A stretch of DNA of 62,685 bases, counting the filler, from Jimgerdemannia flammicorona (Eukaryota): assembly GCA_003990765.1 (NCBI GenBank). It is 3 parts of 3 records of this genome, joined end to end, with 100 filler letters (N's around TTAATTAATTAA, not from the genome) between each part and the next. Parts side by side here need not be neighbours in the genome. Positions count along the whole stretch, not along the records: positions 41,869 to 62,685 come from RBNJ01001583.1; 2 more parts are not named here. One strand, given 5' to 3'. The notes beneath the pieces were generated by a model. The model was not told the origin of the DNA and made no database searches. It saw only the letters and a list, made by a program, of their open reading frames with translations. Within the stretch, counting starts at the first letter, position 1. Each line of letters starts with the position of its first letter. Shown one piece after another: positions 12,836-62,685 of the stretch. A program made the translations under genes and the position numbers.

Positions 12836-12896
12836 ATGCCTATTAGTAATATATAACTATATTTATAATAAAAGCACATTAAGCTAGTATATAGAG

Positions 12897-14868: not shown

Positions 14869-14881
14869 CAGTCCAAGAGAC

Positions 14882-14918: not shown

Positions 14919-14921
<3 letters not shown>

Positions 14922-18300: not shown

Positions 18301-18670
18301 GTTGACTAGTAGTGGAGTTGACAGATGTATCCTTGGACAACACAGTGACTGGTCTTGAGGGTTTGCTAGTTTTCTTAGGATATTTAGTTGTAATGTATCC
18401 TATTTGATAATAGAAGAAACAGACTCCAGATTTCTTCAGACAGTCCTTTTCTTCAGAGGTAAGCTTGGTGTTCTTTTTATTTATAGTGTCTAAGTCTATT
18501 GATACTGGGCCAACTATCCTTGGTTGGTTTCTGTAGCAGTTCTCAAAGTGTTTCTTCTTATAGTATTGTGGTTCAAAGCAGTTGCTAAAGGTGATGACAT
18601 TAAATCTATCAGTGATTCTCATGGCTTCATTAAGGTTCTTAGGCTCTTCTAGCTTAACCTTGATATGTGT

Positions 18671-18671
<1 letters not shown>

Positions 18672-18707
<36 letters not shown>

Positions 18708-20596: not shown

Positions 20597-20839
20597 TGTG
20601 ACGGTACAGCCAGATTTGGAAGAAGGAAATAGGGAATAGACACTTGATCGCACCCATTCCCAAAGTAGTATAGCATCATAGTTAGCAGTCCTCGATTTCG
20701 ACATTGTCTAAATTCTTAGACATTGTCTAAATTTTAGACATTATCCAAATCGAATACCCCGATTTAGTATAGCATTTAGACATTGTCCAAATGTTTCGAC
20801 AAAGTCCAAATGACTCATTTATTACTTAGCCACCCTCTC
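20597..20839. mobile_element. Start of a different, CpG-retaining LTR inserted in the family-1 5' LTR (cut by the gap)
   Basis: Abrupt switch at TGTGACGG. Contains repeated GACATTGTCYAAAT units (~20700-20812). Confidence 0.6.
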
Positions 20840-20939
20840 NNNNNNNNNNNNNNNNNNNNNNNNNNNNNNNNNNNNNNNNNNNNTTAATTAATTAANNNNN
20901 NNNNNNNNNNNNNNNNNNNNNNNNNNNNNNNNNNNNNNN
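20840..20939. other. Assembly gap with TTAATTAATTAA linker
   Basis: 100-nt N run with an embedded all-frame stop linker. Confidence 0.99.
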
Positions 20940-30780: not shown

Positions 30781-33700
30781 GGTATCCTCTGCACACGATG
30801 ACCTGCATGCAAAGTGGTAAAAGGGGTCCACAAGGTATACGGATAGGGACTAGACTTTTGGTTCACCAGACGCTGAGCTATGCACCGCCTTATTGTCCAG
30901 ATCGTCTCCACAAAGTTTTCACCAACATGTTCACTAGTGCTGTGCACAGTATTTAATCATATCCACAACGTGAGGACATATCTGACGGTTTTCCTTTCTT
31001 TCTATCGCGATCCTTCCTCCACTTCATTAGTACACGCCACCACGCAAGTCCAACGACGAAAACCGCCCGTTCGGCGGCGTGAAGCTTACCGCGGCTAACA
31101 CCAGGAATTTTTGGAACAGCAGCGGCGCCAACGCCACAGGCTCTTCCACCAGGGACAACACCGGTGACAAACCCCACGACGTCATTAACACCGTCAAGGA
31201 GTCACTCCGCTCGCTGCGAACCATGGACCCCTTATCCCGCGACCGCGACGATCGAGACCGTAGGGGCATAGAGGACCGGGCACGCGATTTCTTCGACCGG
31301 GACCGCAAGGGAAGTAATGACCGCACGCGCGGCCTAGCCGACGACCGGATCCGCAAGGGCAGTGACGACCGCGCCCGCGTTCTGGGCGACGCCCGAATCC
31401 GCAAGGGCAGCGACACCAGCGCACGGGACCGCGACGACCGGAGCCGCAAGGGCAGCGATGGTAGTGTGCGGGACCGCGACGACCAGAGTCGCAAGGGCAG
31501 CGAGGACCGTTCGCGATCTCCAGCCTTTACGAACCCTGGTTCCCCCCCGATGCCGTCTCGTTCACCGCTCCGGAACAACTCGCGTGACACCAACTCACCC
31601 ACGTCGCAAATGAATCCATCTACGAACCAAAACACATACATCGAACCCGTGACGGGCATCATAGGGGCTTCGAGCGTCTCGCCCGTCTCCTCGGGCCATC
31701 CGTCCCTAGACCTGTCGTTCCCTCTTCCGGACCGCAAACGTACGTCGTTCGAGAACCCGCGCAACTACACTCCCAACGACCCCTCTCCGCTCCGCGAGCC
31801 CTTCTCTCCGGCCACGCCCAAATCCAACAACTCGACAGGTAACCGCACAGGATACTTCGACCAGGCACCTTCCACCCCGAAATCCACCGTCTCGGACGAG
31901 ACCCGCTCCCGCTCGACCGCTACCGCTCCGACAACACGCCCGTCATCCAACATCCTCGCCAATGAGCTGATTGGCACCATGCCACAGCTACCCGCAAGAT
32001 CTGGGTCCCCGGCCCCTAGCAGCCCGCTACAGTCGCCCATCACGCCACACACCACTGGTGGCGGCGTCAGCGGGTGGGGTGGAGGAGCGGGGGAAGGAGG
32101 GGCGGCAGCGGAGAGATCGCGTGTGAGTGAGGATATAAACGGAATGATGGCGATGCTGGTGAATGGGGTGCAAGAGGATCCAGCTGCGGTGTTGGCCCCG
32201 GTGATGCAGAGGATGAGCGGAGGGTACGTGGGCATGATGGATTCGATGGATGAACTGTTTTTGCAGCTGTTGATTTCGCAGGCGGTAATTGATGCCAAGG
32301 AGTTTGAGGTGTTGACGTTGGAGGAGGTGGAAGATTTAAAGAAGGTTGGTTCTATTTTTTTTGATTTGTGTGAGAGTGAGACGGAAAAGAAGGTTGAGGG
32401 GAGAGGACGGAGATAAAATAGGTGGAAAGCTGCATAAACACGGAGATGGAAAATAGGCTAAGTAACGCGGAGCTTTTACGCGCACAAGTACTGACAATAC
32501 ATTTGATCATCTCAATAATTACAAACAGGACCACATTAACCTGACCACTCGTGTCGCCAACCTCACCACCCGCCTCTCCCTGGAATCCAAGATCCGCGAA
32601 GCCGCCCACTCTCTTACCCGGCTCCACGCCACCAACAAGAAGCTCGCCAAGCAAGCCAACGAACAGCTCGCGACCGCGAACCGCAAGGTAGACCAAGTGG
32701 CCACAGAGCTCTGGAAACTGACGCAGCGTGGTTCGGAGGTTCAGAAGCGACTCCTGCAGCACATGGCTGGCGCTCTCGCTCTTGGTGTCCGCAAACTCGA
32801 GGAAGAGAAGGGACGCTGGACGGCGATGAGCCCCCGGCAGCTGTCGTTGCATCCGGCGGACAGCGACGCTGCGGCGTCGATGAAGACGTCGGACCAAGAG
32901 GAGATCATCGCACAACTGGAGTCGCAGCTGAGCGCGATGCAGCAGACGGTACACGAACAGCAGTCCGGGATGGCGTCGCGTGACCGGGAGATCGAGGCGC
33001 TGCGGACACAGCTCAAGAGCCACACGATGGATGACACGACCGAGGCGCAGCTGGAGGAGAAGGAGCGCGAGATTTTAGAGCTCCGGTCTGAGCTGGAGCA
33101 AGTCAGCACCCGACTCGACTTTGTCGTCAGGAAGCAGCAGAATAATGGTGCGACGTCCGACGAAGGAGAAGATAAGGGGTTGTCTAGCAGCGAGGCGGAG
33201 AGGAATGCGACGTCGACGAACCCAAGTAGTCATAATACCGCGACGATGGCGCAGTTGTCTGGGACCTTGTCGGCGCTCGAGGAGCAATTATCTGAGTATC
33301 AGGCAAAGATTCACAAGTTGGAACATGAACTGGAGACGACGCAGGAGGCGTCGAAGAGGGAGAAGGAGAGACGCGGGTCGGAACCGGATAGTCAGAATAT
33401 CCGAAATGTATTGCAGAACTCGTTAAGGGACGCGCTGTTGGAAAAGGAGAGAATGAGGGTGCAGGTCGAGCAGGAGAGGAGGAGGAACGAGGATTTGGAA
33501 AGGAAGGCGGCGGAGCTGGAGGAGGAGTTGAGACAGGCGGCGGAGTTGAGGGCGCTAGATGGGAAACAGGGAGAAGCCGAGGAAGCGAAGAAGTTGCAGG
33601 ATGAGATTGATAGGCTAGAGAGAGCTAAAAGGGAGAGCGCCGAACAACTGGAGAAGAGGCTGAGGGAGGCGGTGCAGGATGTGGATCAGCTGAACGCGCA

Positions 33701-35120
33701 GTACGAGGATGTCGTTGGTATTCTAAGGAAGGTGTTTGGCGAGCTGCCGGATGTCGCCGCGGACGCCAGAAACAAGGACATTGTCAGTACTCGGGACGAG
33801 AGCTCGCGTAAGGAGGGACGTCGGTTTAGCATGGACGCGTTCGTCGGCCGGGTGCAGTTCTTGTCGACAGAGAACCAACGGCTCGTGGACAAGATCTTGG
33901 AGATGCAGGGTCGACTGGAGAATATGCGTATGCGCGAGGAAGAGCTGGAATCAGCGTCCAAGACGAGCCAGAAGGAGCTCGAGACCGCATGGGCCAACCT
34001 TGAGTCCGTCAAAGCCACGCTTTTCGAACTGGAGCTGAAGGGCAAGACGTCGTCATCGGAGCTGATGGCGTCGACGGACCGCGAGCAGGTGCTTCAGACC
34101 GATCTCGAGCGCGCGCGGGACGAGCTCTCGGCTCTGAAGCAGGAAAAGTTCAAGTGGGAGCAGACCATGAAGCGGCAGTCTGTGTTGCAGGTGGTGCAGG
34201 ACGGTGGCGCGAGTCTCAAGTCCGCGCTGGAGCAGCAGCTGGCGGCGCAGGAGCAAGATTACCAGGCGCAGCTCAAAGAGCGTGACGTGTTGCTAGGCAA
34301 GTTGCAGAAGGATGCGGAGAGCTACAAAACGGAGAACGCCAAGCTTGGTGCGATGTGCAAGGAACTGGAGGACATGGTGCGGGAGAAGATACGCAGCCTG
34401 GATGGGCGCGACGCGGTGATCAGCCGGCTGGAGGACGATATCGCGAAGCTGCAGGCCCAAGTGAGCGAGGCGGAGATGTCTATGACGACGGCGCTACAGA
34501 ACGCGAGCCGGAATGGAAGTGCGGCATCAGGGAAGGAGTTGGCGAGCGTGCGCGGGGAGTTAGCGCAGGCGAAGGCTGAGCTCGAGCAGCTGCTTGAGGA
34601 GCGGGACTCTTTCGAGGGCGAGCTGCGGCACGCACAGGAGGCCGTCCAGACGATGCACGCAAACCTGCAGAGCGCTCAGGCACAGTTCACGGAGCGGGAG
34701 ACGGCGCTGGAGAAGCAGAGCGTGACGCTGCAGAACGAGTTCGACGGGATCCTGAAAGAGTTTGATCGGCTGACGCGTAATTTTGTCGATTTCGAGAGCG
34801 AGCGGCAGAGATACGAGGGGCAGATTGACACGCTGCATAAGCGGTGCCAGGCGTTGGAAACGGAGCTGGCGGACGAGCGTATTAAACATATGGGCACGAG
34901 CAACCCCGAGGAAGTGGCGTCGACGGCGACGTTGAGGAAGGAGTTTAGGAAGCTGATGAGCGAGTTGAGGACCGAGCAGCAGAAGGTACTGAATAGGGAG
35001 GTGGAAGAGAAGAAGAAGATGGAGTTGTTGGTCAGGGATATGAAGAGGGAGAGAGAGATGGTCAGGTGGGAAAAGGTCAACAAGGGTGTACAGACTGGTT
35101 TCGTGGCTGTGGGTGTGTAA
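30689..35120 (+). CDS. Uds1 (up-regulated during septation) domain coiled-coil protein, ~1304 aa. Exons 30689-30697, 31031-32344, 32529-35120
   Basis: In-frame GT-AG joins. LLISQAVIDAKEFEVLTLEEVEDLKK|DHINLTTRV..LESKIREAAHSL..ELWKL..RLLQHMAGALALG matches the Uds1 domain pattern. Long coiled-coil C-terminus. Confidence 0.88.
31230..31515 (+). repeat. Coding repeat with five DxxxRKGS(D/N/E) units
   Basis: CGCAAGGG(C/A)AG recurs at ~50-nt spacing. Confidence 0.8.
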
Positions 35121-41768: not shown

Positions 41769-41868
41769 NNNNNNNNNNNNNNNNNNNNNNNNNNNNNNNN
41801 NNNNNNNNNNNNTTAATTAATTAANNNNNNNNNNNNNNNNNNNNNNNNNNNNNNNNNNNNNNNNNNNN
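41769..41868. other. Assembly gap with TTAATTAATTAA linker
   Basis: 100-nt N run with linker. Confidence 0.99.
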
Positions 41869-44800
41869 GATTCTTCTGAATCAGACACACTGGGTGGATT
41901 ACTCAGATAACTTGGATGTCACAGATATCACAGATTCTTTCTGAATCAGTAGCTCTCTAAGAATGACTGGTTTCTTGAATAATAACTTAGATTCTCTTCT
42001 CTTAACAAAGTTATATCAAAGACTGGCTTCATTTGTATCAATAATAAACTGTGAAGTTGTGGCAACAAACTGGTTTAGTGATAAGGTTCCTTAAGGTGGG
42101 CTCTTTGGGAATGCAGATAACTGAGAAATAGTGGCTTATTCCTTAAGCAGCAGATTACTCAAATGGCAGTGAAGTTCTTCTTGAACTTTGGTGACAAATC
42201 TTCAGACTTATCTAGCAAGTATACTAATCAATCTTTATATCGGAAAGTGGACCAGAGTGGAGAAAAGGGACCAATGCTCAATCTTTAGAGACTTCTTTTG
42301 TTTACTTCAACTTTTTGGACTAAGGTTTATTCACTATTATCTCTGGGGTATTTTATATAGTTGTGGTTACTATCTGGTTACAATGTTGCTAACTATAGAT
42401 TACTATCTAGAGTAAGTATTCATGGGCAGTACAGTATACTAACTTGATATAGAATACCAACTTGGTACAGTATATCCACTTGATACAGATAAATATACTG
42501 TTTCTGGTAACTCTGGCTAATTATCAGGTTGGTACAGTAAAGCAGTCTTAGTTGCTTAGTGTACTAGATATGGTATATGGCTAATTTATGAATTTTGTAG
42601 TACAATACTGTTGCTCATCACATCAGTTCCTACTAAAGGATGGTCTGCCCTCAGACAATCCTTTAGTCATCATTTCAATGTGCATAAGTATCTTCAGCAT
42701 CAATACCTGAACTGGTATCTTTATTTATATTAGAGTTAATCTATTCAACAGCTTCTTCTTCCTCTGGGAACAGGATTTTGATATGGTTGATAATGCTTCA
42801 GTAGGTGGTTAGATTAGTGTTTTGTATATCATTCAGAGAGAATTGGGCCTATATCAGTACTGGAATATTTCATTTGTAGATTGTGTACAATCTGTCTGCA
42901 GTAGTGGTGTTATTCTAGATTTCCCACAGGATCTCGGATAAGCAAATTGACTCAGGTAAGTCCTTTCTTGATGGTCTGGTTCATTCTTTCTATCATATCA
43001 TTGGTCTGGGGGTAGTATGATGTAGTTTGTTTAAGGTGGATCTTGTGAATTTGAGCATAACTTATAATTATGTTATTGATAAATTCTATGCCTCAGTCAG
43101 AGATAAGTTCTTCTGGAGATCTATATCTGAGTGTGAGTATATGGAGAAGGCTTACAATGGTCAAGGCATCCGCAATTTCCATTGGGAAAGCCTCAGGCCA
43201 CTTGGTTAGTTATTCTACAAATATAAGAATATACTTATTTCTTTTGTAGGAGTCTAATTATGTCTACTTCCTATCTCTGAAAGATGTTTTCTGGTGGTAT
43301 AATTGATTGTAATGGTGCTTGATGGTTCTTTCTTCCTTGGTACTTCTGGCATCTATTACATTTCTTAAGTATGTCCTGGACTTGTGTTCTAAGATTGGAT
43401 CAATGTTGGTATATTGTTTACAGCTTTTCTTTTATATTCACCTATCCTTGATGGGCTTTCTGATGTTCTTTTCAGATAAGATCTTCTTGATCCTTAATGG
43501 TCTGAGGAGCTTCCTTTAGGGTGTAGTTTCTTAGTATACCCTTCTTCTAGTTCATTGAAATTGGTAAAAAAAGTATATATATCAATATTGTTGTGAGGTT
43601 TCTCTGCTTTATGGATGATGATGATTTTGTAATCCTGGAGGATAAAGATCCAGCAGGCTGGGATTCCAGTAGATTTCTTGCAGTTGAATAGCCATTTGAG
43701 GGCTGTATGGTCAGTTATCAGAGTAAATCTTTTTTCAATAAGATAATACTTGAACAAGATGACTGCTCATATAACTGTAAGGCATTCCAGTTTGGTGCTA
43801 CTATTATTTATCTACTGCTAATTGGTAGCTTAGTTTGTATAAGCTATCACATAGTATTGTTGCTCAGGTCCTACTTGGGCTAGAACTACTCTCAGGCCAT
43901 CTTTGGAGGTATCTGTATATAAGATGAATGACTTCTATAGATTGGAGCAGACAAGGATTGGTACTGTAGCATGCTGTGCTTGAGTTTCTTGAAGGCTAGT
44001 TCTTGTAATTCTGTCCATTTATAAGCTACTCCTTTCTTGAGAAAGATTTGAATTTAGGAAGCAATTTGAGCAAAGTCCTTGATAAACCTTCTGTAGTAAG
44101 ATATGAGTATCAGGAATGATAGGGTTTCCTTTGTGGTCTTGGGAATAGGCCAATTGTTGATCTTTTTGGGTTTCTTTGGGTCTGCATGGATTCCTTCTTT
44201 TGAAACTATGAATTCAAGAAATCCAAGTTTCTGTTTCCCAAAGTAGCATTTCTTATTATTGAGTCTCAAGTAGTTCTTACAGGTGAGCTTGAAGTATTCT
44301 TCTAGATAGTATAGGTATTTCTCAAAATTTATTGAGTAGATGTTTGAGTCATCTATATATACAATTAGGCAGTGGTGGATCAGGGGGATATAGACTGAAT
44401 TCATCATTCTCTAGAAGGTGGGGGGTATATTGCAAAGTCCAAAGGGTATTCAGAGGTATTCAAATAGTTTTCCTAGAGCAAAAAAGGCTGTTTTTTGAAT
44501 GTCTTTAAGATCCATGAGGATCTCATAGAATTCTGCAAAAAGATCTATACTGCTGAAGTATCTGGTATCTTGTAACTAATCTAAAAGATCATCAATTCTG
44601 GGCTAAGGATAGGCATTCTTTTTGATGACTGAATTGAGTTTCCTGTAGTCTATATAGAGTCTCCATCCTCCTTTCTTTAGTACAATAAGTATAGGGCTGG
44701 TCCAAGAGCTGATTGGGTTGGATGACTCCATTGTCTAAGAGTTCTTGAATGTGTTCCATTTTGAATGTCTTTAGGTGATGGGGTATTTAATAGGATTTCT

Positions 44801-47352
44801 GCCAGATGGGTGTTGCATTTTTTATATTTATGCTGTAGTGATATAATGGATTGTATGGTAGGTTACCATAGTCTGTGGTGAAGATATCTTGATATTTGTT
44901 GAGGAATTCCACTAGTTGGTGCCATTGCTGGGGTATCAATTCTTCTCAAATATTAGTGGAAGGCTTCATTGTCTCCTGGGTTACAGAGGGGCCTTTTCTT
45001 TCTTCTAGGACCTTTTTCCATTATCCAATAAGTTTAGTTCATAAACTTCTCTATAAGTTCAGTAGAGAAAAGGCACCAGAGGTCCTATGATGGTTCTTTT
45101 TGGCAATATGATGGTTTCCCAACTATAGTTGGTTGCTCAGGAGTATACTGAATTCATCTTGTCAGGAAATGTGTGTCCTTCAATGTCCAGATTCAGGATA
45201 TCTTCATTAGGTTCGAAGAAGAGGTTTCTGGGGTTGGGTGGTGCAAATATTTCGAAAGTAGTTTGCTCTCCAGGCTCCAGAATAAGATTTTTGTACAGTT
45301 TGACTGGTTGGTAGTATACTTGCTGGGGGACATTCCTCTTGAGATGATTGACCTGAAGGAGATGTACTTCCTTCTTATCTGAGCTTCCAAATCCTTTGGC
45401 TTGTCTTGTTCCTTCAGTCAGTTTGGAGACTTCTTGAAATTGAGAAGTCTTGACTCTCATGAAGACTGCTTGAGCAATCTTCTGTCCTCTAATGATTCAA
45501 TACTATTCTGTACTACTGTTGTGCAAGATGATTTTGATTTTACTAGTATATCTTGGGTCAATGGTTCCTCCTTCTATGGTTATTCCTTATCTGGCAAGTC
45601 TAGACCTTGAGGTCAGTGTATATAAGTTTCTTAGTTCTGATCATCAGTATTCTTCCAGGCTTGATAGGTTCATCATCCAAACTGTAAAGGTCATACTCTA
45701 CATCTTCTTAGTGAGCTTTGGTCCAGAGTTTGGCCTTGGGATATAGCAGAGCATACTGGGCAACATCTTTGCTAAGTTCAGGCTATCCTTAGGCTGAAGC
45801 TCTACTGGCAGAAAGTCTCCAAGCTGGTGTAGCCTTCTGGCTCCAGTAGAAGGGTCTCAGATGTAATTGATTCCTCTATTTTCTGTAGGGTTTAGGGCTT
45901 CCATGAAGTTGGTGGCATCTTCTATCCATCCTTGGTGGGTTGTATGTCTGATGAGAGCTAGGATGTCTTCTCCTAAATCATAGATCTTGAGGGTTCTTTA
46001 TCCTGGCTTCTTGGTTTGGCTTTTTTGGATCTGGCCTCTGTTATCTCCTCTCTTCAAGATGTGTATCATAATATTATGACTGAGGTGAATCTCCTGAAGT
46101 CTGCACTCTCAGCAGTCTGGGTGTCTTCTATGGTTGCAATATCCCATTGCTCAGAAATGCTATTTCCTGTTGTTGATTTCTTGCTGCTTTGGAAATCAGT
46201 ATCCACCTTGGTCATAGACTGGGGAAAGAGTAGACAGGAGGTATACTTCTGTTTGGGTGAAGAGACCTTATCCTCTAAATCGACTTTGCAACTTGGTGGT
46301 AACTTCTTGAAAGGTGGTCAACTGTGCAACTATAGTTGGGGTTCTAATCTTCAGAGTGTCTGTCTTCCTTATTGGTCCAGTAGGTGACACTGATAACAGT
46401 AGTCTTGGGGAGAGTGGAAGACCATTTGATGTGGACATCTTCCTAACCAAAAGGCTCTTTCCTGATATGTTTCTTGTTTGAGAATAAAGGAGATTGTACT
46501 GGGTCCTTCTTCAATATTCCAGGGGTCATTATTTTCAGGTTGTGTCTCATTAGGATCATCTCAGGGAATAAGTTAGGGAACTTCTTCTTCTTTAGGTACT
46601 TCTTGTTCAAGAACCTCCTGTTCAGGGGCTTCTTCTTCCTTGGATGATTCTTGACTCCAAATTGGTTGTACTTCTGCAGCTTCAGCTGCAAGTGTCTCTG
46701 GAACATGTCTGCATTTCTTCTTCTTTCTTCTGCACTCAGGTCAGGCTGTGCCAAGCGAATTTCTTGTCCCAATGATCTTGGAGGAGTGCTCAGAGCACTG
46801 TGTCTCTTAAGGCAGATGGAGCATCCTTTGATTTCTCCTGCAATGGCTCCAATGGTGATTGGGATAGTATTATTAGCTTATATATTTTCTTCTGGCCTAT
46901 TATCTACTAGATTGATCTGGTGATTGAGTCTGAGATTATTTCCATCTTCAGAATCTTCATCCTTTCTATGGTAGATTCTTCACTGCTGGCATATTCCTCC
47001 TAGATGGTGACCTTCTTTTTCTTCTTTGAATACTCATAGCTAGTTATCTTAACTTTGTACTTCTTGCCTTGGTAGTTAAACTTGAGTACTTTTTGATCAA
47101 TATCAATAACTGCATTCATTTCCTTCATCTAGTTGGTATTAAGAATCATATCAAAGGTAATAGCTTCAGTAATAATAGCTTTTGAGATGGAGAACTGTGA
47201 GAAATGGTGATGTTTCATACTTCTCCAAGGGGTTGAGTTCAGGCTCCATCTGCTACTATGATGCTGAGATTGGATGGTCCATCAATGGGCCATTGGAGGA
47301 TATCCAGGAATCATTTTGCAATAATACAGACAGCTGAGAGATCTAGATCCAG
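41869..47352 (-). mobile_element. Decayed Ty3/gypsy family 2: PR-(long insert)-dUTPase-RT-RH-IN, probable 3' LTR at ~41869-42620, cut at the protease by a LINE
   Basis: PR remnant 47000-47350 (SAVCIIAK..IIVADG..QPLGEV), dUTPase 45377-45760, RT (LIVYIDDS, 44054-44407), RH (FILYTDTSKDG, FTLITDHTAL), IN core remnants ~42850-43500. Confidence 0.85.
45377..45760 (-). pseudogene. dut: Retroelement dUTPase domain located between protease and RT
   Basis: AKLWTKAH*EDVEYDLYS, SRSRLAR, GGTIDPRYTSKIKIILHN, KIAQAVF, TRQAKGFGSSD. Confidence 0.9.
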
Positions 47353-50300: not shown

Positions 50301-52902
50301 CGGTGGATGAGGATGAAAGAGATGGCCAGGATGTACTGAAGCAAGGCTGGCAAGGAGGCAGGGAAGCAGCAAAGGCAGAGAGTGCATTGGGCTTCTACTA
50401 AATTGGCTAGGCTTCTGGAGGAGTGGACAAGACTGGCGATGGTGGAGGGAGAAGAAGATTGGAGAGTAATGAGGGTGAAGATGGAGGTTGGGGAACTACA
50501 ATAGGTGCTGCGGGAAGAGGAAGAGGTAAGGGTGCAAAGCTTGGTGGCATGGCTTCATTGGCAGGGGCTGGAGGAAGGGGAGAGGCCTTCTAAGTTTCTC
50601 ATGAGGACCCTTAGGGTGAGAAGGATACAGCAATGTTAGGAAGGGGTACTCGACTTGGATGGTATACTAGTGCATGGTGTACCAGATATTCTTGAATTAC
50701 TGAAGGAGTGATAGAGTGGATTGTGGAGTGAGGAGGAGGGTGGGGCAGATGCTACTGCCATTGACTGAACATTGGAGAATTGGTACCCACCATAAGTTGA
50801 GAGACTAGGTGATCTGGTGATGCCTGTAAAGGAGGATGAGATCCACCAGGTTCTTGCCATGACAGCCTCAGGTATAGTACCTGAAGAGGATGGCCTACCC
50901 TGGGACTTCTGGAAGTGAATGGTTGGAGTCTCAGGTGTGATGGGAGAGTTGATGGCATTGGGTGACTCTATATTGCAGACAGAGAGATGGGTGGGGGAGC
51001 AGGATCTTGGGCTGGTGATGCTGCTTTATAAGAACAAAGGAAGGTGAGAGAATTGGAAGAACTGGTGGCTGATAATGTTGCTAGATATGGACAGAAAGTT
51101 GATGACAAAAGGTGGTGGTCACAAGGCTACAGAAGGTAGCCCAGCAAGTTATAGGTGTTGAGCAGAGGGGATTTGTGGGTGGTTGGCTCATTAGAGATGG
51201 CACAGCCTGGGTACATGGAGTTATTGAAGGGGCTAGAGCCTGTGGACTGGATGGGCATCTAGTCTTCTTGGACCAGGAGAAGGTTTATGACTGAGTGTGA
51301 CAAGTCTGGCTGGTGAAAGTATTGGATAGAATGGGGGTTCTGATCCAATTTCGGTCAGCAATGGTCAGCCTACTGAAAGGAAGTGGGGCTGTCCTCATGT
51401 GTAATGGGCATAGAGGGATAGCATTCCCTCTGAGTAGAGGGGTGCCCCAGGGGGACCCACTGTCCCCCATCTTGTATGCTCTTTCCCTGGAACTCCTAAT
51501 GGACAGAATTAGGTGGAGGATAGTGGGACTTGCTATCTATGGCATAGGGTGGAAAGTTGGGGCCTTTGCAGATGACATGGTGGTTGGTTTGGGATCGATT
51601 GCTGATATCAAGGAGCTCAAGAAGACAGTGGAGTGGTATGAGAAGTCCCCTGGGACGAAGCTAAATTGGTATAAGTGTGAAACAATGGTGCTAGGCAATG
51701 GCCTAATGGGAGGAGAAGTTATAGAAACAATTGTCCCCACCAGTGAAGCAGTGCAGTACTTGGGCATCTATTTGTCAATCTATGGATCAGTTCTGCCCAA
51801 GCTTTGGTGGGAGCAGCAAATAGGAATTTGGGAGGAGGACCTGCAGGGTTGGGTGAGAAGACACTTTTCTCTGGTGGGATGGGTCTTGATTTTGAATGTA
51901 TATTGGCTGCCGAAGCTGTGGTATTTGGCTTATCATCTGGACTTCCCAGCCTGGGTGATGAAGAGATTGGTAAAGGTGGCCAAGGGATGGATTTGGGCTG
52001 GCAGACAGAGCCAGATTGGTTGGGAGACCTTGTCCCTACTGGTGGTGAGAGGTGGTCTTGGGCTAGTGGACTTTCCCAAATGACTATACTGCTTGAGAGC
52101 ATGGTGGCTTAAGAGGGTGGTGGAGTTGCGAGGAGGGAGTTGGGTTCCCCTGCTGCAGAAGGTCTGAGAGAGGTAGTCATCACTGAGAGGCTCAACTGGG
52201 GATCTTCTCTCATTGGTTGGACTTCAGAATACTACACAATTGTGATATAAAGGTTTCTGATAGGGGATAGTGGAGGGGACACACTACATTGGTATTCGCT
52301 GACAGGAGAATGAGAGAGAGGAGACTTGGGACCTAGTGATGTGGAGATGGGATGGCATACTGCTGGGCAGCATGCCTTTACTTGAGTTCAACATTGGTGA
52401 TGGAATAGAATGCCAAAGGGGACCAGGCTAGGATCTGTGGCCTAGCAGTTGACAAGGAGTTGGAATTGGAGAAGAGTGGGACAGGCATAGTGTTTGGATC
52501 TGAAGTGCCATAGTGTGAAAATGGATGCCACTGAAGTACTGGGTGGTCTGGTGGTGCATACTGAGGAGGAATATAATGCTCAACTTCTACTCAGGGCACC
52601 TTATCAAAGGGGGTTGCTTCGACTGTGAGGAGTGCCATAATGTAGAGCAGGAAGGGGGCTTTGTACAGACACCAGAACATTGGCTAGGAGGGTGTGAGGT
52701 GTTGGGAGACTTTTGTCGGGTCATTGGGGACTACTTGGGAGTAAGGTATAGGAGAGATGAAGTACAGGGGAGGTGGGAGGACTTGAGGGATTGATTGGTA
52801 GGAGGGGTAGGAAAGGAGTGGATTATCTTAGGTTGGACATTGGCTATTCGGGTTGGGCTGGCCAGTCACTGGCTATTTGTTTTTGAGGATGAGAGGCAAT
52901 AG
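47353..52902 (+). mobile_element. L1/Tx1-like LINE copy B (same family as 1-5868), 3' end cut by a gypsy insertion
   Basis: ORF1 47436-49423. ORF2 from ~49455 with EN, RT (GVPQGDPLSP, AFADD) and Zn knuckle. Collinear with copy A. Confidence 0.95.
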
Positions 52903-54964
52903 TGTAAGCGCACAACCTCCAAGCCACTGAAATTACATGTCACCCTCTGAACAGCCACTGAAATTACACGCGACCTCTGAACAAATCTGGAACTCACCTG
53001 CTTGATCACGAAGCTGAGTCAAACTGAAGTCACAGCGCACAAAGGTGAGTCAATATGAAGTCATGGAACACAAGATCTACACAAATGGAATCTTACCAAT
53101 CAGGACCAAATACATATATACCAAGCACCGAGACACATCAAATCAGAAAACCAAAACAAACAACAACTACAACTTTCAAACACACAAACATGACCACTGA
53201 GATCTACAACCGTATCTGTGCTGACATTTGGAATGCCATTGTCAACCGAGCCACACCCCCTCTACCCCTCATGAATATCCATAGCCTGGCACCCCTCTAC
53301 TTCATGGAAGCCCGATGGAACACCCTGAACATGCTTAGCGAGGCCCACCGAATCGGACAAATCTCAAGCTACTACCAGATTGGCCACCTCCTGGAAGACA
53401 TGGTCGAACACCACCATGATACAGATATTACTCAGATGTCTCAACACTGGAAGCTCATCACTCGCAAATACCGAGAACTCTTCTACGAGTATAGTACTAT
53501 TATTTCCTGCCTCTGAGTCACTACTAGCGAAATGGTTGCTACCCTGTCCTATGGCCAAATCGATGACATGATACAAGGACTCAACCACATGTACCTCGAG
53601 TACGTCGAAACCACAGACAGAACCTTTCCGCACCCTGATGACCATATCCTGCAAATGCCTCAAGTTGGATACACCATGAAGGATGTCTATAATATAATCC
53701 ACTTTGATGAAGATGAAGCAGAAGACAATGATCCCTCTGATGCCGACATGACCTCTAGCCAAGGATCTCTGCCAACCCTGATCACTCTGCCAACCTTGCC
53801 GATGAACTTACAACAGTTCATAATGGCATATGAGACTTATTGGGACAATGACCACTGGCACGAATACCAACCTGCATTCACCCCCAATTACTTCAATTAC
53901 AATGAAGAGACTGGAGAACACAACCTGTACCTTCAGACAACCCTTGAAATCGAACCAACCACTCTACCACCCGAGTACGAGTGACATGAACCACAGCCGC
54001 CAGCATACTATAACCCCATAACTTATAGTGCCATAATCTATAGAAGGTACGCAGACAGTGAATCTGATGAAAGTGAAGACAATATACCCATCCTTCGCCC
54101 ACCAACACCTTATCCAGTGTACGAGACAGATGATGCTATCCTATGGGACGGAGATGAAGTCCCAATGTATTATTATCTCAGCCAACAAGGAGAAGTAATC
54201 TGCAAACCACTCTTCCTAGATGACTACTTCATCAGAGATGATGCAATCGATGGTGATGTCATCGAAGACTTCCCAGACAGCGCCTAAACCCATAAATAGC
54301 CTAGCAGTTATAGTATAGTTAGATTAGCTTTGTATGACATAACTGTGAACTGACTCAGCAGTCAGACGATCTCTTGACATGGCAGATCACACTTGTACTA
54401 CGTGACTGCATTCTGACTCAGCAAGGTACTTAGTGCTACATCCATATCTAGCATAGTCCAGATAGCCCCTCACTAGTATAAATACCCCCTCCCCCAGACC
54501 TCAGAATCTCAGACTTGAACAATCCGAACTCAACTCCTGAATACTTCCCCACAATACCCCTTTACATAAATACTCCTGGCATAGCAATATCATGAATAGC
54601 AAATAAACCTATTTCATAACTCATAAACCACTCTTAAGTAAATCTGCTCCCTGTTAGGTCCTACTCCTAACCCCATCACGAAATTTCCTAATTGGGTATT
54701 GTCTGCAGCGATATACCAATTCAACTAAGCTGGTCTTAGTTTCTTGAATATCCTGAAATACGGAAAATCCTGAACATCCAGAACTAGTCCAAAAAGGACT
54801 TTGGTTGAGACGTCAACCCAATCTTGAAATCAATAAGCATAGAGGATGTACTCCATACGAAATTGATCTTGACCATAAGAAAATGGTCTTCCAGAATATC
54901 CAGAACTTCCAGAAAACCCTTCCAGAACTATGTAACAGTTACCCTAAAAAGTAACCCTCTTACA
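52903..54964 (+). repeat. 5' LTR of gypsy family 3 (2062 bp)
   Basis: Direct repeat of 61487-62650. TATAAATA at 54477, AATAAA at 54602, terminal TGTAAG/CTTACA. Confidence 0.93.
53190..54287 (+). CDS. LTR(U3)-encoded protein of unknown function, ~365 aa (410 aa from the ATG at 53055), two CGA>TGA stops in this copy
   Basis: Single frame 53055-54287. Its only internal stops (53514, 53982) are CGA in the 3' LTR. Acidic, Tyr/Pro-rich C-terminus. Confidence 0.8.
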
Positions 54965-54999
54965 ACTTGGTAGCAGCAGTTTATAATCCAATTCCACTT

Positions 55000-57900
55000 C
55001 AAGATGCTTCCTCACCCTGCTACAAAACCTTCTGTAAATTCCTACAAGTTGGTATAAAGCCCAACCTCTGAACTGGAATTAATCTGAACCATCTGACAAT
55101 CTGGAGAGAATTGAACCTGACATATAAGGACAATTTGACCTCCACACCTGCAACAAGTGGGATAAACTTCATTCAAAGAAAGAAGTACTCAAGTTAAACC
55201 AGCAAATAGGCGAAACCCTATTCACCGAACTCCTTGCACTACACCCAGCAAGTCAAGATGAAGAAGGTCTTATTGAAGCCTTCTTTACTCTTCTCAACAA
55301 GAGTTTTGTCAGCTCCACAAATCCAAGCGACCTAGGACAACCAGCAGCAGTCTTTCTAGCCTTAGTTCCTCACGAAGCCCAAGCCTCTGTAGCCAAGTGG
55401 CTCAACTCTATGGACTATCACTGTACCAGGACCAAGACCGCCTTATACTACCAATTCCAGAACAGCAAGGCATGCCATATCCTCAAAGAAGAAGTAAGAG
55501 AAACCCTTCATCAACTACCTGACCCCAAACCTGAAGCAGGCCCTGCTACAGCCCCACCTGAATCTGAAACCAATACCGAACCTGAACTTGACTTTGAATT
55601 AAGTCCATCTGAAATCAGATATACAACTGATTCTGTCTACTTTGACGCCAAGCAAACCCAATTACATGGGGACCAAACCAAAGAAGAGGAGGAGTATCTT
55701 ATTGAATTCGATCCTGGATACACCACTGAAGGAGACACACATCCATCAGGACAGAATACACCTACACAACAACAAACAGCTATCTATCAAGCCCTCACTC
55801 CAGACCCACAACTACTACTCCAGCAGCTTACACAGACCCAAAGAACCCCATCACACTCTGCACCAGTACCTCAAGTAGTACCAGTAACACCACTATCAGC
55901 AGTCCAACTACCTCCAGCAATCAACATGACGAACCAACAGATTCTAGACCTCACAGCCCAAGTAGCTATAATGGTAGCAACCATTACTGCCTTAGCTGAA
56001 CAGACCAGACCTACCAAAAATCTGAGCCTACCTACCTTCAATGGTACTGCACAAGAAGTCCAACTTCATTAGTGTAGTTGACACCAACTTCGAAGCCAAT
56101 CAATGGACTAATGAGTGAGTTGCTGACCATGTTCTGACAAACAATCAAGACCACACTCTGGAACAACTCTTTGCTACCACTACAGCCTATGTCCACCAAG
56201 GTGTTACATTCTTCCGAGGACCTGCCGAAGAATTGTGGTGAACCCTTCCTGAAAAACCCCTCACATGGGATACCTGACCTGCAGTAGTTGCTCAGAATGC
56301 AGCAAACAATGCCCCAGGATATAGAGCCCATCCTGCAGCCCCTGGACTCAAACAACTCATGATTGCTCAATATCGCAGCAAAACCATGATTGCTGAATCT
56401 CGAGTAAAACTCTGCAACCTCAAATTTGATGTACATGGCAAAGAAGAATTTGAAACCTTCTGTACAAAACTCGAGTCACTCCTGAACACTGTTGGCCTAG
56501 GATATATCACCAATGATGAAGCACAAAATAGTACAAGAGCAGACCACTTATTCAATGCTCTGCCTGAATAGCTTACTAGAAAAATCCAAGAACAAGGCCG
56601 CCCAGTTGGTTGTGAATCACCAACAATGGTGCCTAGCAAGAATCAAGACGATGGTCAAGTGAATCCTAACAGCTGGACCAATTCTGCCTCAAAGGCAATT
56701 CAACAACAAGGAAAAGACTTGGACCAAGAAAGAAGAACCCAAGCATGAAGCATCTCGAGCTCCCTCCACATCCACCTCTTGGACACCTAGAAATCATGAA
56801 CCCACCCAGCCAAGTACCTTCAAGAAACTTACTGAAGGTGAAAGAAATGAACTTCGAAGAAGCGGAGCATGCTTCTATTGCCGAAAGACAGGACACATGG
56901 CCAGTGCCTGCCCCAACTGAAAACCCTGAACAGCAACAAGAGCAACTGTTACCACTCTGCACCACCTCAACAATTTGACCACCAGAACACTAGACTTTGT
57001 CAAGTTAAGACAAACTGCTAAGGCCCCAACCAAAGGAAATCAAAAAGCAGCTGGATATGACCTGTATACAGCCAAAGAAGCTACAGTCTCCAACTGAGAA
57101 GTCAAACAAGTCTACACAGGAATCAGTATCCAAATCCCTGAAGGACATATTGGAAGAATATGCTGTCGCCACAGCCTAGCACTGAAAGGACTCTCAGTAG
57201 AAGGGGGAGTCATCGACGAAGATTATACTAGTGAAATCATTGTCCTCATTCGAAACCACAGTTGGACACCCTTCAAGATCCCTATTGGCTTCTGCATCAC
57301 CCAGATCCTATTCGAAAAAATCGAGTCAACCCTGACAGTCAAGGAAGTCCCTGAACTACTGCCCACCATCTGAGGATCTAAAGGATATGGCTCATCAAAC
57401 AAAGCCCCAGCCCAACCTACCATAAGCAAAGAAGAACAATTTTATAAGAAGATCGAAGATGGATATATACCAAGTGGCCGATGCCCTCATGATATTGGAA
57501 TGTACTCTTTCTGAATGATTGATGATTGCTTCTCTTGTGTCAACGAACTGGCTCAAAGAAGAACCAACAGAAGAAAGACTCCTACAACTGAAATCACCAG
57601 CATTGGATCAGACAAACTGCTCACCCTTAAGGCTTTTGTCAACTGAGCACCTGTCAAGATTATGATAGACAGTGGTGTCTCAGGCAACTTCATTAATGAA
57701 GAGACAGCCAACAGACTCAAGGTCTTCACCTCCCCAGTATAGCAAACTCAAGCAGTTGCTACAGCTGATGGAACCTTGCATGTTATTAGCAAAGAAGTCC
57801 GCAATCTACTCTTCCAAATTGGTGACTACCGAGTACATGTTACCCTCCAAATCGTACCACTTCCTGACAATGAAATCATCCTTGGGACTCCATGGTTAAA

Positions 57901-60900
57901 ACGAGAAAACCCCATGATCGATTGGGTAAACCATTCTCTGACCATTAAGAAAGGACACCACAACTTCAAACTATAAGACGAATAGGACTCACTCAACTCT
58001 AGTGACCCTGGACCAAAGATCACCCACATCAACAAGCTACAACTCAAGAAATTGGCCAAGAAATGCCCTCTCTTTGCCATCTCCATCCAACTATCCAAAG
58101 GAGAACCCAAGAACTCTGAAGAAGATTTTTCCAAAGTTGACAATCATGTCAGACTACTACTCCAGAAATTCCGAGACATATTCCCAAAGAAGCTCCCAAA
58201 AGGCCTACCTCCCAAACAAGCAGTAGACCATGCAATCAAGACTATCCCAGATGCCAAACCAGCCTTCAAGTCAATCTACCACATGTCTCCAAGAGAAATT
58301 GATGCACTCAAGAAGGAAATCGACGAACTCCTAGAACAAGGATTCATCAGACCCAGTGTATCACCCTATGGTGCACCAGTCCTCTTTGTTGTCAAGAAAG
58401 GAGGAGACCTACGAATGTGCTTTGACTACCGCAATCTCAATGAACAGACCGTCAAGAACTGTTGCCCACTACTAAGGATCAATGAAATATTCGATAGACT
58501 TACCAACCTACAATTCATGAGCTCCTTTGACCTGTGAAATGGTTACTGGCAAATTGCCATGAAAGAAGAAGACATCTACAAGACAGCCTTCCGAACTCGC
58601 TATGGACACTTCGAGTTCCTGGTTATGCCCTTTGGCTTAACTAATGCTCCAGCAACCTTCCAGACACTGATGAATACCATTCTGCATCCATACCTAGACA
58701 AATTCATTGTTGTCTACATTGACAACATCCTAGTCTTCAGTAAAACCTTGGAGGAACATCTTGAACACCTTGAACTAGTACTACTGAAACTCCAAGAAAA
58801 CTGACTCTTTGTAAAACTCAGCAAGTGCGAATTTCTCCTGAAAGAAATTCAATTCCTTGGACACATTGTCACTCCAAATGGAATCAAAGTAGACCCCAGC
58901 AAAATCTCTGCAATCAAAGATTGGCTCAGACTGAAGAAGCTGAAAGACCTCCAGTCATTCCTGGGATTAGCAAACTATTACAGGCAATTTGTTGCTAACT
59001 TTGCTAAAATCGCTACTGCCCTCACTCAAATGACCAAGCACTGCAAGAAACAAGAACAACCCTGGACCATGAAACAAGAGAAAGACTTTAACAATCTTAT
59101 AAATTGGGGACCCAAGCAAGATACTGCCTTTCAAGCACTGAAGGATACCTTGATAACCACTCCAGTACTTCAAGCAGCAAACCCTACCCTACCATATAAA
59201 GTCACTACTGATGCCTCTGATCTAGCTCTTAGAGCAGTGCTCATGCAAGAAGGACACCCTGTGGCCTATTACTCCAATAAGTTCAATGATGCCGAAATCA
59301 ACTATACAACTCATGAGAAGGAAATACTAGCCATCATAGACACTCTGATCAAATGGCGACCATATCTAGAAGGAGTACACTTCACTGTATTAATTGACCA
59401 CAAGTCATTAGTCAACATCAAGACCCAGGCTACCCTTTCTCAAAAGCAAGCCAGATGGATGAAAGTCCTCACCAACTTTGACTACGAAATCCAGTACTGC
59501 CCTGGCAAGGAAAATATTGTTGCCGATGCAATCTCCAGACCACCTATTGAAGAGGTTATCCAAACTCTCACCTTGGTTACAAACTCCATCATGGAACAAA
59601 TTATCACAGCATGTGCTGATGATAAGGAAGCTCAAGCACTGCAAGAAATCCTGAATAGTGACAATGCCGACAAGCATAGACAGTATCATCAATACCAACT
59701 GAAGGACAATGCTATCTACTACAAAGACAGACTCTATGTCCCAAACAACTGAGACCTCCGAAGGACTATCCTATTTGAATGTCATGATGCCCCTATAGCT
59801 GGATATTTAGGATTTGACAAATGCTATGAAGTTATTTCCCAGAACTTCTATTGGCCCTGTATGGCAGATCAACTCAAAACCTACATTACTTCCTGTGATG
59901 CCTGCCAATGAAACAAGTCCTCAATACTAGCAAAACCCAGCTTACCTCACCCTATCCCAGTACTATCTGCAAATTGGGAACAAATCTCTATAGACTTTAT
60001 TGTACAACTACCCCGAACCAAGAATGGGAAAGATGCAATTGTTGTCTTTATGGACTACCTCAGCAAACAAGCCCACTTTGTGCCTACTACCACTACTGCA
60101 ACGGCACCAGACATAGCCACACTCTTGTTTGACAACATCTTCCACTATCATAGTCTTCCTAAGATCATTGTTAATGACTGAGACCCGAAATTCACCAGCC
60201 ATTTTTGGAAAGCCCTCCATACACACCTGGGAACAAAACTTGCACTATCCACAGCCTTTCACCCAGAAACTGATGGCCAAACTGAAAGAATGAACTGAAC
60301 TCTGGAATAAATACTAAGGAACTATGTTTTCTATAGACAAGATGACTGGCATGAATACCTCACCACAGTTGAGTTTGCCTACAACAATAGCAAGCAAGCC
60401 TCTCTTGGAATGACCCCATTCTTTGCCAATACTGGACAAAATCCAAACACCCATTTGACACTTATCCGAACTAATGAAGAACCCTCCACAGTCGAAGCTA
60501 TTGAAGAATTCTTACTCCGAATGCACAATTTAAGCCAGATTGCCATCGAGAATTTATCGCGAGCTCAAGAACAACAATCACAGTATGTTAACCAACACTG
60601 CTGAGAAAAAACTTTTGATATTGGAGAAAAAGTCCTACTAGACATTAGAGGATACCGAGTTGACAACCTCAAGCACAGACCATCTACAAAGCTGAGCAGC
60701 AAGTTCATTGGACCATTTGAAGTCATCGCACAAGTCTCTCCAACCTCCTACAAACTGGCACTACTAGACACCATTAAGATTCACCCAGTCTTTAATGTTC
60801 AATGTCTCAAGCGATACAATGAGAATGATGATGAGCTATTTCCAAACCGGACCCCCAAACCACCTGCACCTGTCATCATTAATGACCAAGAAGAGTATGA

Positions 60901-61057
60901 AGTTGAATAAATCCTCAACAAATGTCGCAATAAGAGCCATCCTGAGTACCTTGTCAAATGGAAGGGTTACCTGATTCATGATGCAACCTGGGAACCCAAG
61001 ACCAATCTCCAGAATGCTACCAACCTAGTTCAGGAATATGATTCCTTGAACAACTAG
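55000..61057 (+). pseudogene. gag-dut-pro-pol polyprotein of gypsy family 3 (nucleocapsid to chromodomain in one frame), decayed
   Basis: Zn knuckle, dUTPase (AAGYDLY, RHSLA, GGVIDEDYTSEI, ITQ, GSKGYGSS at 56990-57400), PR, RT, RH, IN and chromodomain share a frame interrupted mostly by TGA. Confidence 0.92.
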
Positions 61058-61486
61058 AACCAAATATTCCACACCTATCCATACATACTATATATTATTC
61101 TCCTGAACATTATAATTATTACAAACAAAATCAAGAACTCAGCAAAACAAAGACAAGAATACTGACCCCCTGGAAAAAATAGCAAAACTGAAAGCAAGCC
61201 TATTCTCCCTATACAACTGGTGGGAAACAAGGCATAGATATTTAAGAAGATTCCTTAGAGGAAATTCCCAGTAGTGAATGACATCAGAATCACTTCCGGC
61301 ACATGGTATTGAACACATGACCCTTTAACATATGAATCCAATGTGTTAGGCAACTGTACTATGAGAATGCCACTTTCTGAGAAAAAATAGACCTTACTAG
61401 ACTTTTGACCTCTCAATTGGTGTAACAACACTAGAACAAAATTAGAAGGCCCCGACGAGTACGTTGAAAGCTAAGAAGGGGAGAGT

Positions 61487-62648
61487 TGTAAGTGCACAAC
61501 CTCCAAGCCACCAAAATTACACGTCACCCTCTGAACAAGCCACTGAAATCACATGCGACCTCCGAACAAATCTGGAAATCACCTGCTTGATCATGAAGCT
61601 GAGTCAAACCGAAGTCACAGTATACAAAGCTGAGTCAATATGAAGTCATGGAACACAAGATTTACAAAAATGGAATCTTACCAATCAGGACCAAATTCAT
61701 ATATACTGAGCACCGAGATGCATCGAATCAGAGAACCAAAACAAACAACAACCACAACTTCCAAACACACAAATATGACCACCAAGATCTATACCCATAT
61801 CCGTGCTGACATTTGGAATGCCATTGTCAACCAAGCTATACCCCCTCTGCCCCTCATGAATATCCATAGCCTAGCACCCCTCTACTTCGTGGAAGCCTGA
61901 TGGAATACTCTGAACATGCTTAGCGAGGCCCACCAAATCAGACAAATCTCAAGCTACTATCAGATCGGCCACCTCTTGGAAGACATGGTTGAACACCACC
62001 ATGATACAGACCCTACCCAGATGTCTCAACACCAGAAGCTCATTGCCCACAAACATCGAGAACTCTTCTATGAGTACAGTACCATTATTCCCCACCTCCG
62101 AGTTACTACCAGCGAAATGATTACTACCCTGTCCTATGGTCAAATCGATGACATGATACAAGAACTCAACCAGAAGTACCTTGAGTATGTCAAAACCACA
62201 GACCGAACCTTCTCCCATCCTAATGACCACATTCTACAAATGCCCCAAGTTGGATATGTCATGAAGGACATCTATAATATAATCCACTTCGATGAAGACG
62301 AAGTAGAAGACAATGATCCCTCTGACACTGACATGACCTCTAGCCAAGGATCTCTGCCAACCCTGATCATACCGCCAACCTTGCTGCTGAACTTACAACA
62401 GTTCATAACTGCATACAAGACTTATTGGGACAATGACCACTGGTATGAATACCAACCTGCATTTACCCCTGATTACTTCAACTACAATGAAGAAACTGGA
62501 GAACACAACCTGTACCTTCAGACAATACTCAAGATCGAACCAACCACTCCACCACCTGAGTATGAGCGACATGAACCACAGCCACCAGCTTATTATAACC
62601 CTGCGACTCATAGTGCTGTAACCTACAGAAGGTATGCAGACAGTGAAA

Positions 62649-62650
<2 letters not shown>
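61487..62650 (+). repeat. 3' LTR of gypsy family 3 (partial), ending at a poly-T tract
   Basis: Aligns with 52903-~54065. Poly-T 62651-62685 replaces the remainder. Confidence 0.93.

Positions 62651-62685
<35 letters not shown>

Follow-up and report, generated by a model that had tools for sequence, protein, structure and literature searches.

The window analysed here was a stretch of 62,685 nt (filler included) from the fungus Jimgerdemannia flammicorona (GenBank assembly GCA_003990765.1), made of three parts joined end to end, with positions 41,869 to 62,685 derived from RBNJ01001583.1. Its last 10 kb were occupied by one plus-strand long terminal repeat (LTR) retrotransposon, a Ty3/gypsy chromovirus (Metaviridae) with a dUTPase at the N-terminus of pol. 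Each LTR of this element carried a long sense open reading frame (ORF), which is the main subject here. The LTRs, the ORF copies and the signals flanking them were located as follows.

52903-54964, plus strand: 5′ LTR of 2062 bp with TG...CA ends (TGTAAG...CTTACA), delimited by sequence and by blastn to the 3′ copy
53010-53065, plus strand: duplicated module of ~31 bp, with TGAGTCA at 53015 and 53046 and TGAAGTCA at 53025 and 53056, present in both LTRs
53055-53189, plus strand: upstream in-frame extension of 45 codons, open in both LTRs, probably an untranslated leader
53190-54287, plus strand: LTR-borne ORF, 365 codons plus TAA at 54285-54287, broken by TGA at 53514-53516 and 53982-53984
54477-54482, plus strand: the sole TATAAA in the LTR, a consensus match, presumed promoter of the genomic RNA in the U3/R boundary region
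54602-54607, plus strand: the sole AATAAA in the LTR, a consensus match, presumed poly(A) signal in R
61487-62654, plus strand: 3′ LTR, beginning directly after AAGAAGGGGAGAG and ending at the poly-T of 62655-62685
61775-62653, plus strand: second ORF copy (codons 1-293) in the 3′ LTR, broken by TGA at 61898-61900

The sense frame was open from 53049, 146 nt inside the LTR, and contained in-frame ATGs at 53055, 53085 and 53190. Between 53190 and 54287 it held 3 stops including the terminator, versus 14 and 34 in the other two sense frames and 6, 22 and 24 in the antisense frames. All three lesions across the two ORF copies were CGA to TGA changes, and they were reciprocal: the TGAs at 53514 and 53982 of the 5′ LTR read CGA in the 3′ LTR (62099 and 62567), and the TGA at 61898 of the 3′ LTR read CGA in the 5′ LTR (53313). 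The truncated 3′ LTR stops short of the final 73 codons (54066-54284), which are therefore known in the window only from the 5′ copy, where they are open; P0002, a metagenomic relative described below, covers them as well. An earlier reading of this DNA, made without database searches (the sequence-only reading), had placed the LTRs and the frame to within one base of these coordinates, had set the frame inside the 2062-bp LTR upstream of the TATA box (54477), and had noted the TGA/CGA reciprocity at the three sites, all of which agreed with the LTR comparison. Its start at 53055 probably lies in leader sequence, together with the rest of the extension at 53055-53189. Between the two LTRs the extension had 4 synonymous and 8 non-synonymous differences, small numbers that fell 3/5/4 on the three codon positions, and thus no coding pattern was seen upstream of 53190; a second metagenomic relative, P0003, likewise begins with the Met encoded at 53190. 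The gene start is most likely 53190, in line with the peptide given in the sequence-only reading.

Because the ORF lay wholly within the LTR, upstream of both its only TATAAA and its only AATAAA (190 and 315 bp past the ORF stop codon, respectively, with a spacing of 125 bp), we infer from these consensus signals that it lies in U3. With such a placement, an integrated element would carry the ORF in duplicate, one copy in each LTR, and its genomic RNA would lack the ORF at the 5′ end and have it 3′-terminally, after pol. The TGAGTCA/TGAAGTCA motifs, which we take to be bZIP/AP-1-like sites, were accompanied by a TATATA at 53115 that was retained in the 3′ LTR too. Most likely, this module and the TATATA would form an own promoter within ~250 bp of the LTR start; translation would then begin at 53190, the first ATG after the TATATA, and the message would end at the LTR AATAAA. 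Alternatively, the ORF might be expressed from a subgenomic RNA, perhaps a spliced one like those of retroviruses; no convincing splice signals for such an RNA were seen. A search of 52700-55500 against Rfam gave no match.

The same bZIP-like motifs and TATATA, lying just ahead of ATG 53190 and kept in both LTRs, also speak for a different arrangement, in which transcription would start near the 5′ end of the LTR and the frame, though real, would be a 5′-leader cistron of the genomic RNA in a very long R or U5 and not part of U3. This is decidedly unlikely. The sole TATAAA and AATAAA after the stop codon form the usual U3/R layout, and R would have to span about 1.5 kb, which to our knowledge is far outside known LTR elements. 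In addition, the depth of one sequencing run with a guessed RNA label (X10) went from less than 20 to 577-6244 just after 54486, which is a hint only.

Relatives of the ORF protein were searched for by word matching in ~5.8 billion clusters (near, shorter and profile modes) and by exhaustive phmmer in 1.84 billion representatives. Across ~15 billion proteins there were two true relatives. P0003 (128 aa) was 88% identical over residues 1-128 and had Arg at the position of the 53514 stop. P0002 (247 aa) was 64% identical over residues 115-365; it was open, ended at the same residue, and differed from the window copy by two indels, each of 2 residues and in frame. The stretches best kept between the window copies and P0002 were aromatic and acidic, for example YQPAFTP-YFNYNE-TGEHNLYLQT and PLF-D-YFIRDD. 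Between the window ORF (P0001) and P0002 there were 89 mismatches with a mean BLOSUM62 score of +0.24, and 45 of the 89 scored positive, whereas 500 simulations of neutral codon mutation to the same identity gave a mean of -0.49 ± 0.16 and a maximum of -0.01. Seven of the 500 simulated sequences were free of stops. A further candidate, the bacterial repeat protein P0004 (E 7e-6, nine stretches), was a spurious match. Metagenome contigs queried with the protein alignment gave 74 pattern matches and no relatives, those queried with the conserved 21-mer of the U5 end gave no matches, and viral contigs searched with P0002 held no relatives.

The two LTRs shared 88.2% identity across 1160 bp (blastn, LTR versus window). 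In the comparison of 52903-54065 with 61487-62650, 123 of 139 differences were transitions; C/T changes (87) far outnumbered G/A changes (36) on the plus strand, and 39 of the 139 were in CpG context. The ORF copies differed at 112 positions over 876 gap-free nt, with 32/21/60 at the three codon positions. The ratio of non-synonymous to synonymous rates (omega, dN/dS) was 0.17 by NG86 and 0.23 by LWL85 in the ORF frame and 0.81-1.19 in the other two sense frames. As both methods overstate dS where transitions dominate to this degree, preference was given to a permutation null in which the observed changes were redistributed among sites with matching base and context. With base and CpG matched, 58-60 synonymous differences were observed versus 38.4-38.9 ± 4.8 expected, a number reached in none of 2000 permutations; with trinucleotides matched, 57-59 were observed versus 39.5-40.9 ± 4.2-4.5 expected, reached in none of 3000. 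The other two sense frames showed no synonymous excess in either permutation test. The permutations suggest an omega of roughly 0.5 for the ORF of the LTR pair. A dN/dS comparison had been proposed by the sequence-only reading as a check on the frame and, run on the LTR pair, it came out in favour of coding.

The LTRs of a single insertion are identical at the start and are then expected to drift neutrally. The synonymous excess between the LTRs would therefore mean that part of their divergence arose under selection and that the pair are not simple sisters; they could have been brought together by inter-element recombination, gene conversion or chimeric assembly. Codon-position composition of the ORF paralleled that of pol, position 1 being A/G-rich, position 2 A-rich and G-poor, and position 3 C-rich and G-poor. 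No paralogue of the ORF was found by tblastn elsewhere in the window outside the LTRs, the gag of the element included, and the internal region held no copy.

Words of the LTR were found in 20 listed sequencing runs from 13 studies, mostly soil metagenomes, and the contigs of four runs were placed on the LTR at a likeness of at least 80% (80-99%), giving 3804, 447, 422 and 451 pieces. In all four runs, position 53514 read C in most of the depth (109.2 of 158.4, 20.8 of 20.8, 18.7 of 22.5 and 13.2 of 18.9). Among 12 of the 14 indels, those listed, the only ones internal to the ORF were a compensating -1/+1 pair in one contig, and the other 10 lay outside it, at 52952, 54521-54532, 54790 and 55078-55083. 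None of five contig joints fell inside the ORF; a 58-nt skip (53125-53184) lay just ahead of the ATG. At the 20 best-supported listed ORF sites at which most contigs differed from the 5′ copy, 14 differences were non-synonymous and 6 synonymous, with 9/5/6 at the codon positions, and the 3′ LTR had the majority base at 15 of the 18 such sites that it covers. This is the pattern expected if the private changes of the 5′ LTR are neutral decay after death of the copy, and it fits a two-phase history of selection within the family followed by decay in place. At 53045, within the duplicated module, the 5′ LTR has G, while all contigs placed from the four runs have C, creating a second GCTGAGTCA.

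The protein translated from 53190 (363 residues without the two stops) had an isoelectric point (pI) of 4.2, with 63 Asp + Glu and 15 Lys + Arg, 8.3% Tyr and 7.7% Pro; its C-terminal 222 residues contained 47 Asp + Glu, 7 Lys + Arg and 9% Tyr. In four sequences the Kyte-Doolittle maximum over 19 residues was 0.57-1.14, and as no such window exceeded 1.14, it is not a membrane protein. As judged from its sequence and low-confidence models, it is an orphan, acidic, soluble protein whose helical domain (~140 residues) gives way to a long, probably disordered tail enriched in Asp/Glu, Tyr and Pro. Both the helical N-terminus and the acidic tail rich in Tyr and Pro had been described in the sequence-only reading and were recovered in these models; that reading had recognised no domain, and none came from Pfam either. 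The structural check that it proposed gave a helical N-terminal model and no fold match in the PDB.

These several, partly independent tests suggest that the family kept the ORF under purifying selection, a view that is well supported and not proven. We think it likely that this fungal family of Ty3/gypsy chromoviruses has in the ORF a genuine accessory gene of its own, lying entirely within the LTR. The sequence-only reading had likewise taken the frame for an accessory gene, and the relatives, simulations, permutations and run contigs all point to a selected family gene and not to a chance opening or nested fragment.

Several points weigh on the other side. No Pfam family matched the ORF protein at E ≤ 1, the best sequence hit in the PDB had E 0.61 and was no match, and no distant relative was found among the ~15 billion proteins. 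The AlphaFold2 (AF2) model of the whole ORF, with helices at residues 3-141 and little beyond, had a mean predicted local distance difference test score (pLDDT) of 32, and because this was too poor it was not used in a fold search. That of the N-terminal 128 residues, a six-helix model with a predicted template modelling score (pTM) of 0.48, had a pLDDT of 59, and Foldseek against the PDB returned no matches at E ≤ 0.001, just generic helical repeats. A PPxY 'late-domain' idea was dropped, since the two motifs of each window copy are absent from P0002. Neither relative is complete, their contigs being 998 and 1180 bp long, and an intact natural copy of full length was not encountered; the two copies in the window are both broken. 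The openness of P0002 is partly ascertainment, because gene callers report open frames only, a bias of which the BLOSUM62 replacement test is free. The LTR-pair test presumes that the divergence partly predates the death of the copy, in an element whose 3′ end and target-site duplication are missing, and third-position C/T sites differed at 37-51% versus 22-29% in the upstream non-coding LTR; either the LTR start is itself constrained, which is plausible for an enhancer or att site, or there is a mutational effect beyond trinucleotide context. The start and the end of the transcript each rest on a single consensus match, and none of the 20 runs is recorded as RNA. The variant statements from the contigs cover 40 listed sites of 508, and 53982 is not among them. 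In a related search of the ESM Atlas, P0002 gave no usable match, and its own model there had a pLDDT of 0.39.

Much of this evidence, namely the two broken copies, the lack of a known domain, fold or wider relative together with the low-confidence models, and the neutral look of the private changes of the 5′ copy, also favours a relic or chance frame, that is, a captured coding piece or an accidental opening that never served the element and is decaying. Such an origin is very unlikely, as the other five frames hold 6-34 stops; P0002, at 64% identity, is open with in-frame indels only and the same end residue, and its replacements are more conservative than those of 500 out of 500 neutral simulations; the synonymous excess of the LTR pair was not reached in any permutation of either set; and most contigs have CGA at 53514. 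Least probable of all is a captured fungal orphan host gene without a role in transposition, the signs of selection dating from its time in the host or reflecting host benefit: retroelements do capture extra ORFs, as described for bdelloid rotifer elements in the part of PMC5408684 at hand, and the protein has no retroelement-like domain, but no host homologue was found among the ~15 billion proteins, just two LTR-like fragments, the synonymous excess was measured between LTR copies, i.e. after capture, the codon-position composition equals that of pol, and the window has no paralogue outside the LTRs.

If the ORF is an accessory gene of the element, its composition weakly suggests a trans-acting regulator or adaptor that would work through protein-protein contacts. 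More specifically, it might be a transcriptional activator of the element's own LTR, since the acidic, aromatic-rich composition resembles that of activation domains; we regard this as a tentative first guess of low probability. The sequence-only reading had proposed a transactivator or an anti-silencing protein, roles for which neither the domain nor the fold searches gave direct evidence. It is unlikely that the LTR would be a self-contained gene with its own promoter, ORF and AATAAA, so that any LTR, solo LTRs included, would make a trans-acting acidic regulator. Such a protein could, by analogy with Tat or Tax, exert positive feedback on the downstream LTR promoter, or it could block host silencing.

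The internal part of the element, between and beside the LTRs, contained the following features.

54968-54979, plus strand: putative primer-binding site TGGTAGCAGCAG, 3 nt past the LTR end
55128-56790, plus strand: gag region, from three-frame translation, with a frame shift near 56072 and stops
56768-61054, plus strand: pol, with 18 in-frame stops in 1429 codons
N-terminal part of pol, before the dUTPase, plus strand: CCHC finger (Pfam, stops read as X)
57017-57397, plus strand: dUTPase PF00692 (Pfam 2e-27), between CCHC finger and protease
57608-57958, plus strand: protease (Pfam RVP_2 4e-8)
58394-58870, plus strand: reverse transcriptase (RT; Pfam RVT_1 2.6e-32)
59105-59479, plus strand: RNase H (Pfam RT_RNaseH 7e-31)
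59750-60817, plus strand: integrase (Pfam Integrase_H2C2 7e-18, rve 3e-4, SH3_Tf2-1 4e-16)
60896-61042, plus strand: chromodomain PF00385 (Pfam Chromo 1.8e-15), residues 1377-1425 of 1429, after SH3_Tf2-1
61473-61485, plus strand: polypurine tract AAGAAGGGGAGAG, from sequence; also present ahead of the LTR start in X3 contigs

The LTRs had the features of Metaviridae, with TG...CA ends, the primer-binding-site-like TGGTAGCAGCAG and the polypurine tract AAGAAGGGGAGAG, and in run X3 the contigs reaching the LTR start showed the polypurine tract of the element upstream (loose end at 52903, 6 reads). The order protease, RT, RNase H and integrase was present in pol in a single frame when stops were read as X. 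From the full order of Pfam hits, CCHC, dUTPase, protease, RT, RNase H, integrase and Chromo, the element is thus a chromovirus with the dUTPase at the N-terminus of pol, in agreement with the sequence-only reading, which had named a chromovirus carrying dUTPase. Pfam scans of the gag region at 55128-56790 matched no family. This copy of the element is dead, having stops in pol, a frame-shifted gag and CGA to TGA changes in both LTR copies. TGA made up 13 of the 18 pol stops, and the mutation spectrum of the LTRs and pol suggests decay of the cytosine-deamination type with strand bias. The run of at least 31 T at 62655-62685 that cuts the 3′ LTR could be a contig end, or else a poly(A) tail belonging to an insertion on the minus strand.

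Among known systems, mouse mammary tumour virus (MMTV) has in sag a superantigen ORF of a few hundred codons that fills most of U3, ends upstream of the TATA box and is present in both LTRs. The ORF described here would be similar, as a sense frame duplicated in the LTRs that, judged by consensus signals, would fill most of a long U3 and end upstream of the TATA box. MMTV Sag is a type II membrane glycoprotein, whereas the ORF protein has no hydrophobic anchor and is acidic (19-residue maximum 0.57-1.14, pI 4.2); nor was there any sequence likeness (no Pfam family at E ≤ 1 and no PDB match below E 0.6), and the present element is an env-less Ty3/gypsy chromovirus of a fungal host. Lentiviral nef starts upstream of the 3′ LTR and overlaps U3. 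Like nef, the ORF would be a 3′-terminal accessory gene on the genomic RNA with its coding sequence drawn from U3, but its start and stop are both inside the LTR and no sequence or fold match was found; from the chromodomain to the 3′ LTR, each of the three frames is interrupted by stops. By analogy, the layout is closer to that of MMTV sag than to that of nef.

In Ty3/gypsy elements, extra ORFs such as the env-like genes of the Athila type and ORF3 are known from the internal region. From these internal ORFs, and from ORF1 of Ogre, the present ORF differs in having both copies inside the LTRs. In fungal chromoviruses, an 'add. ORF' of unknown function is named in the legend of Fig. 3 of Novikova et al. 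2010 (PMC2864245), and bdelloid rotifer Ty3/gypsy elements have an extra ORF3 according to the available part of PMC5408684. The ORF resembles these and the Athila-type env-like genes as an ORF of unknown function beside gag and pol, the likeness to the 'add. ORF' resting on the legend alone. According to the portions of PMC2864245 at hand, the dUTPase occupies varying places in pol of fungal chromoviruses (Novikova et al. 2010); dUTPase-bearing chromoviruses include the PosPlaTy3 families of Postia placenta and elements of Phanerochaete and Tuber, and in PosPlaTy3-3 of P. placenta the dUTPase precedes the protease at the N-terminus of pol. Compared by these partial descriptions, the present element resembles them in the layout of its gag-pol (CCHC, dUTPase, protease, RT, RNase H, integrase, chromodomain), but differs from the dUTPase-bearing fungal chromoviruses in its coding LTR, of which those portions of PMC2864245 make no mention for them.

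In the full-text literature, including Benachenhou 2013 (PMC3601003) and Muszewska 2011 (PMC3248453), the passages retrieved reported no ORF internal to a retrotransposon LTR, nor was a published LTR-borne gene found in them for any fungal retrotransposon. The 'LTR ORF' of PMC12037069 means gag-pol ORFs and not an LTR-internal gene, and the other papers retrieved on an 'LTR ORF' concern MMTV. The statement in the sequence-only reading that no U3-encoded accessory gene was known in fungal chromoviruses thus stands in so far as these passages hold no report of an LTR-internal ORF, but has to be softened because an 'add. ORF' is listed in the legend seen of PMC2864245. What would be new is a probable accessory gene in the LTR/U3 of an LTR retrotransposon, as in some retroviruses, encoding an orphan protein.

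Non-retroviral LTR retrotransposons are usually described as gag-pol machines with purely regulatory LTRs. If the LTR-borne accessory gene is real, fungi would have come independently to the habit of coding in U3 seen in 'complex retroviruses', a solo LTR would be a potential gene, and repeat-masking before annotation would hide real orphan proteins; the family is plentiful in soil metagenome runs, though represented by just two fragments among ~15 billion predicted proteins. The ORF protein is, moreover, a concrete candidate regulator encoded by a fungal retroelement. Should the LTR prove to be a self-contained gene, no regulatory accessory gene would have been described before it in a fungal retrotransposon, and the element would have a 'complex' genome of retroviral style outside animals.

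Some further features of the LTR were observed. At its start, 52921-52983 was a tandem duplication of ~31 bp (GCCACTGAAATTACA...CTCTGAACA), and some contigs of runs X3 and X5 lacked or replaced one of the two units (36-nt skip at 52935-52972; loose end at 52953). In run X10, the depth was 416-6244 over 54486-54955, 0-163 over the ORF and less than 18 beyond the LTR, and contigs continued past 54964 into unrelated sequence, which could represent LTR-driven read-out transcripts or a separate high-copy repeat. The spike and the thin cover of the ORF were not read as evidence on expression, the RNA label of this run being only guessed; nor were copy numbers derived from the relative depths of the ORF, U5 and internal parts.

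A non-LTR-type reverse transcriptase fragment (RVT_1, E 5.7e-14) was located on the plus strand at 51301-52083, just upstream of the 5′ LTR, which places the chromovirus within or next to a second retroelement. A gypsy pol fragment on the minus strand at 43623-45616 was 31-38% identical to the RT and RNase H region of the chromovirus. Positions 6000-20700 contained, on the minus strand, two tandem copies (~7 kb period) of a different gypsy family, whose pol was 35-49% identical to that of the chromovirus, with the dUTPase region matched too, and LTR-like repeat blocks were observed at about 6631-7047, 12323-12739, 13680-14096 and 20201-20606. Between these two tandem elements was an isolated 193-bp minus-strand fragment (12901-13093), which matched the final 210 bp (U5 end) of the chromovirus LTR at 78% identity, with no piece of the ORF adjoining. 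The N runs at 20840-20939 and 41769-41868 were each a pair of 44-base runs 12 bases apart, unlike assembly gaps. A host gene of the fungal Uds1/DUF7801 family, which marks the host as a fungus, extended over two plus-strand frames at 31031-35120 (31031-32416 and 32466-35120), probably owing to an intron or a frame change, and the nearest Atlas clusters of its 32466-35120 part were from Ascomycota and Basidiomycota.

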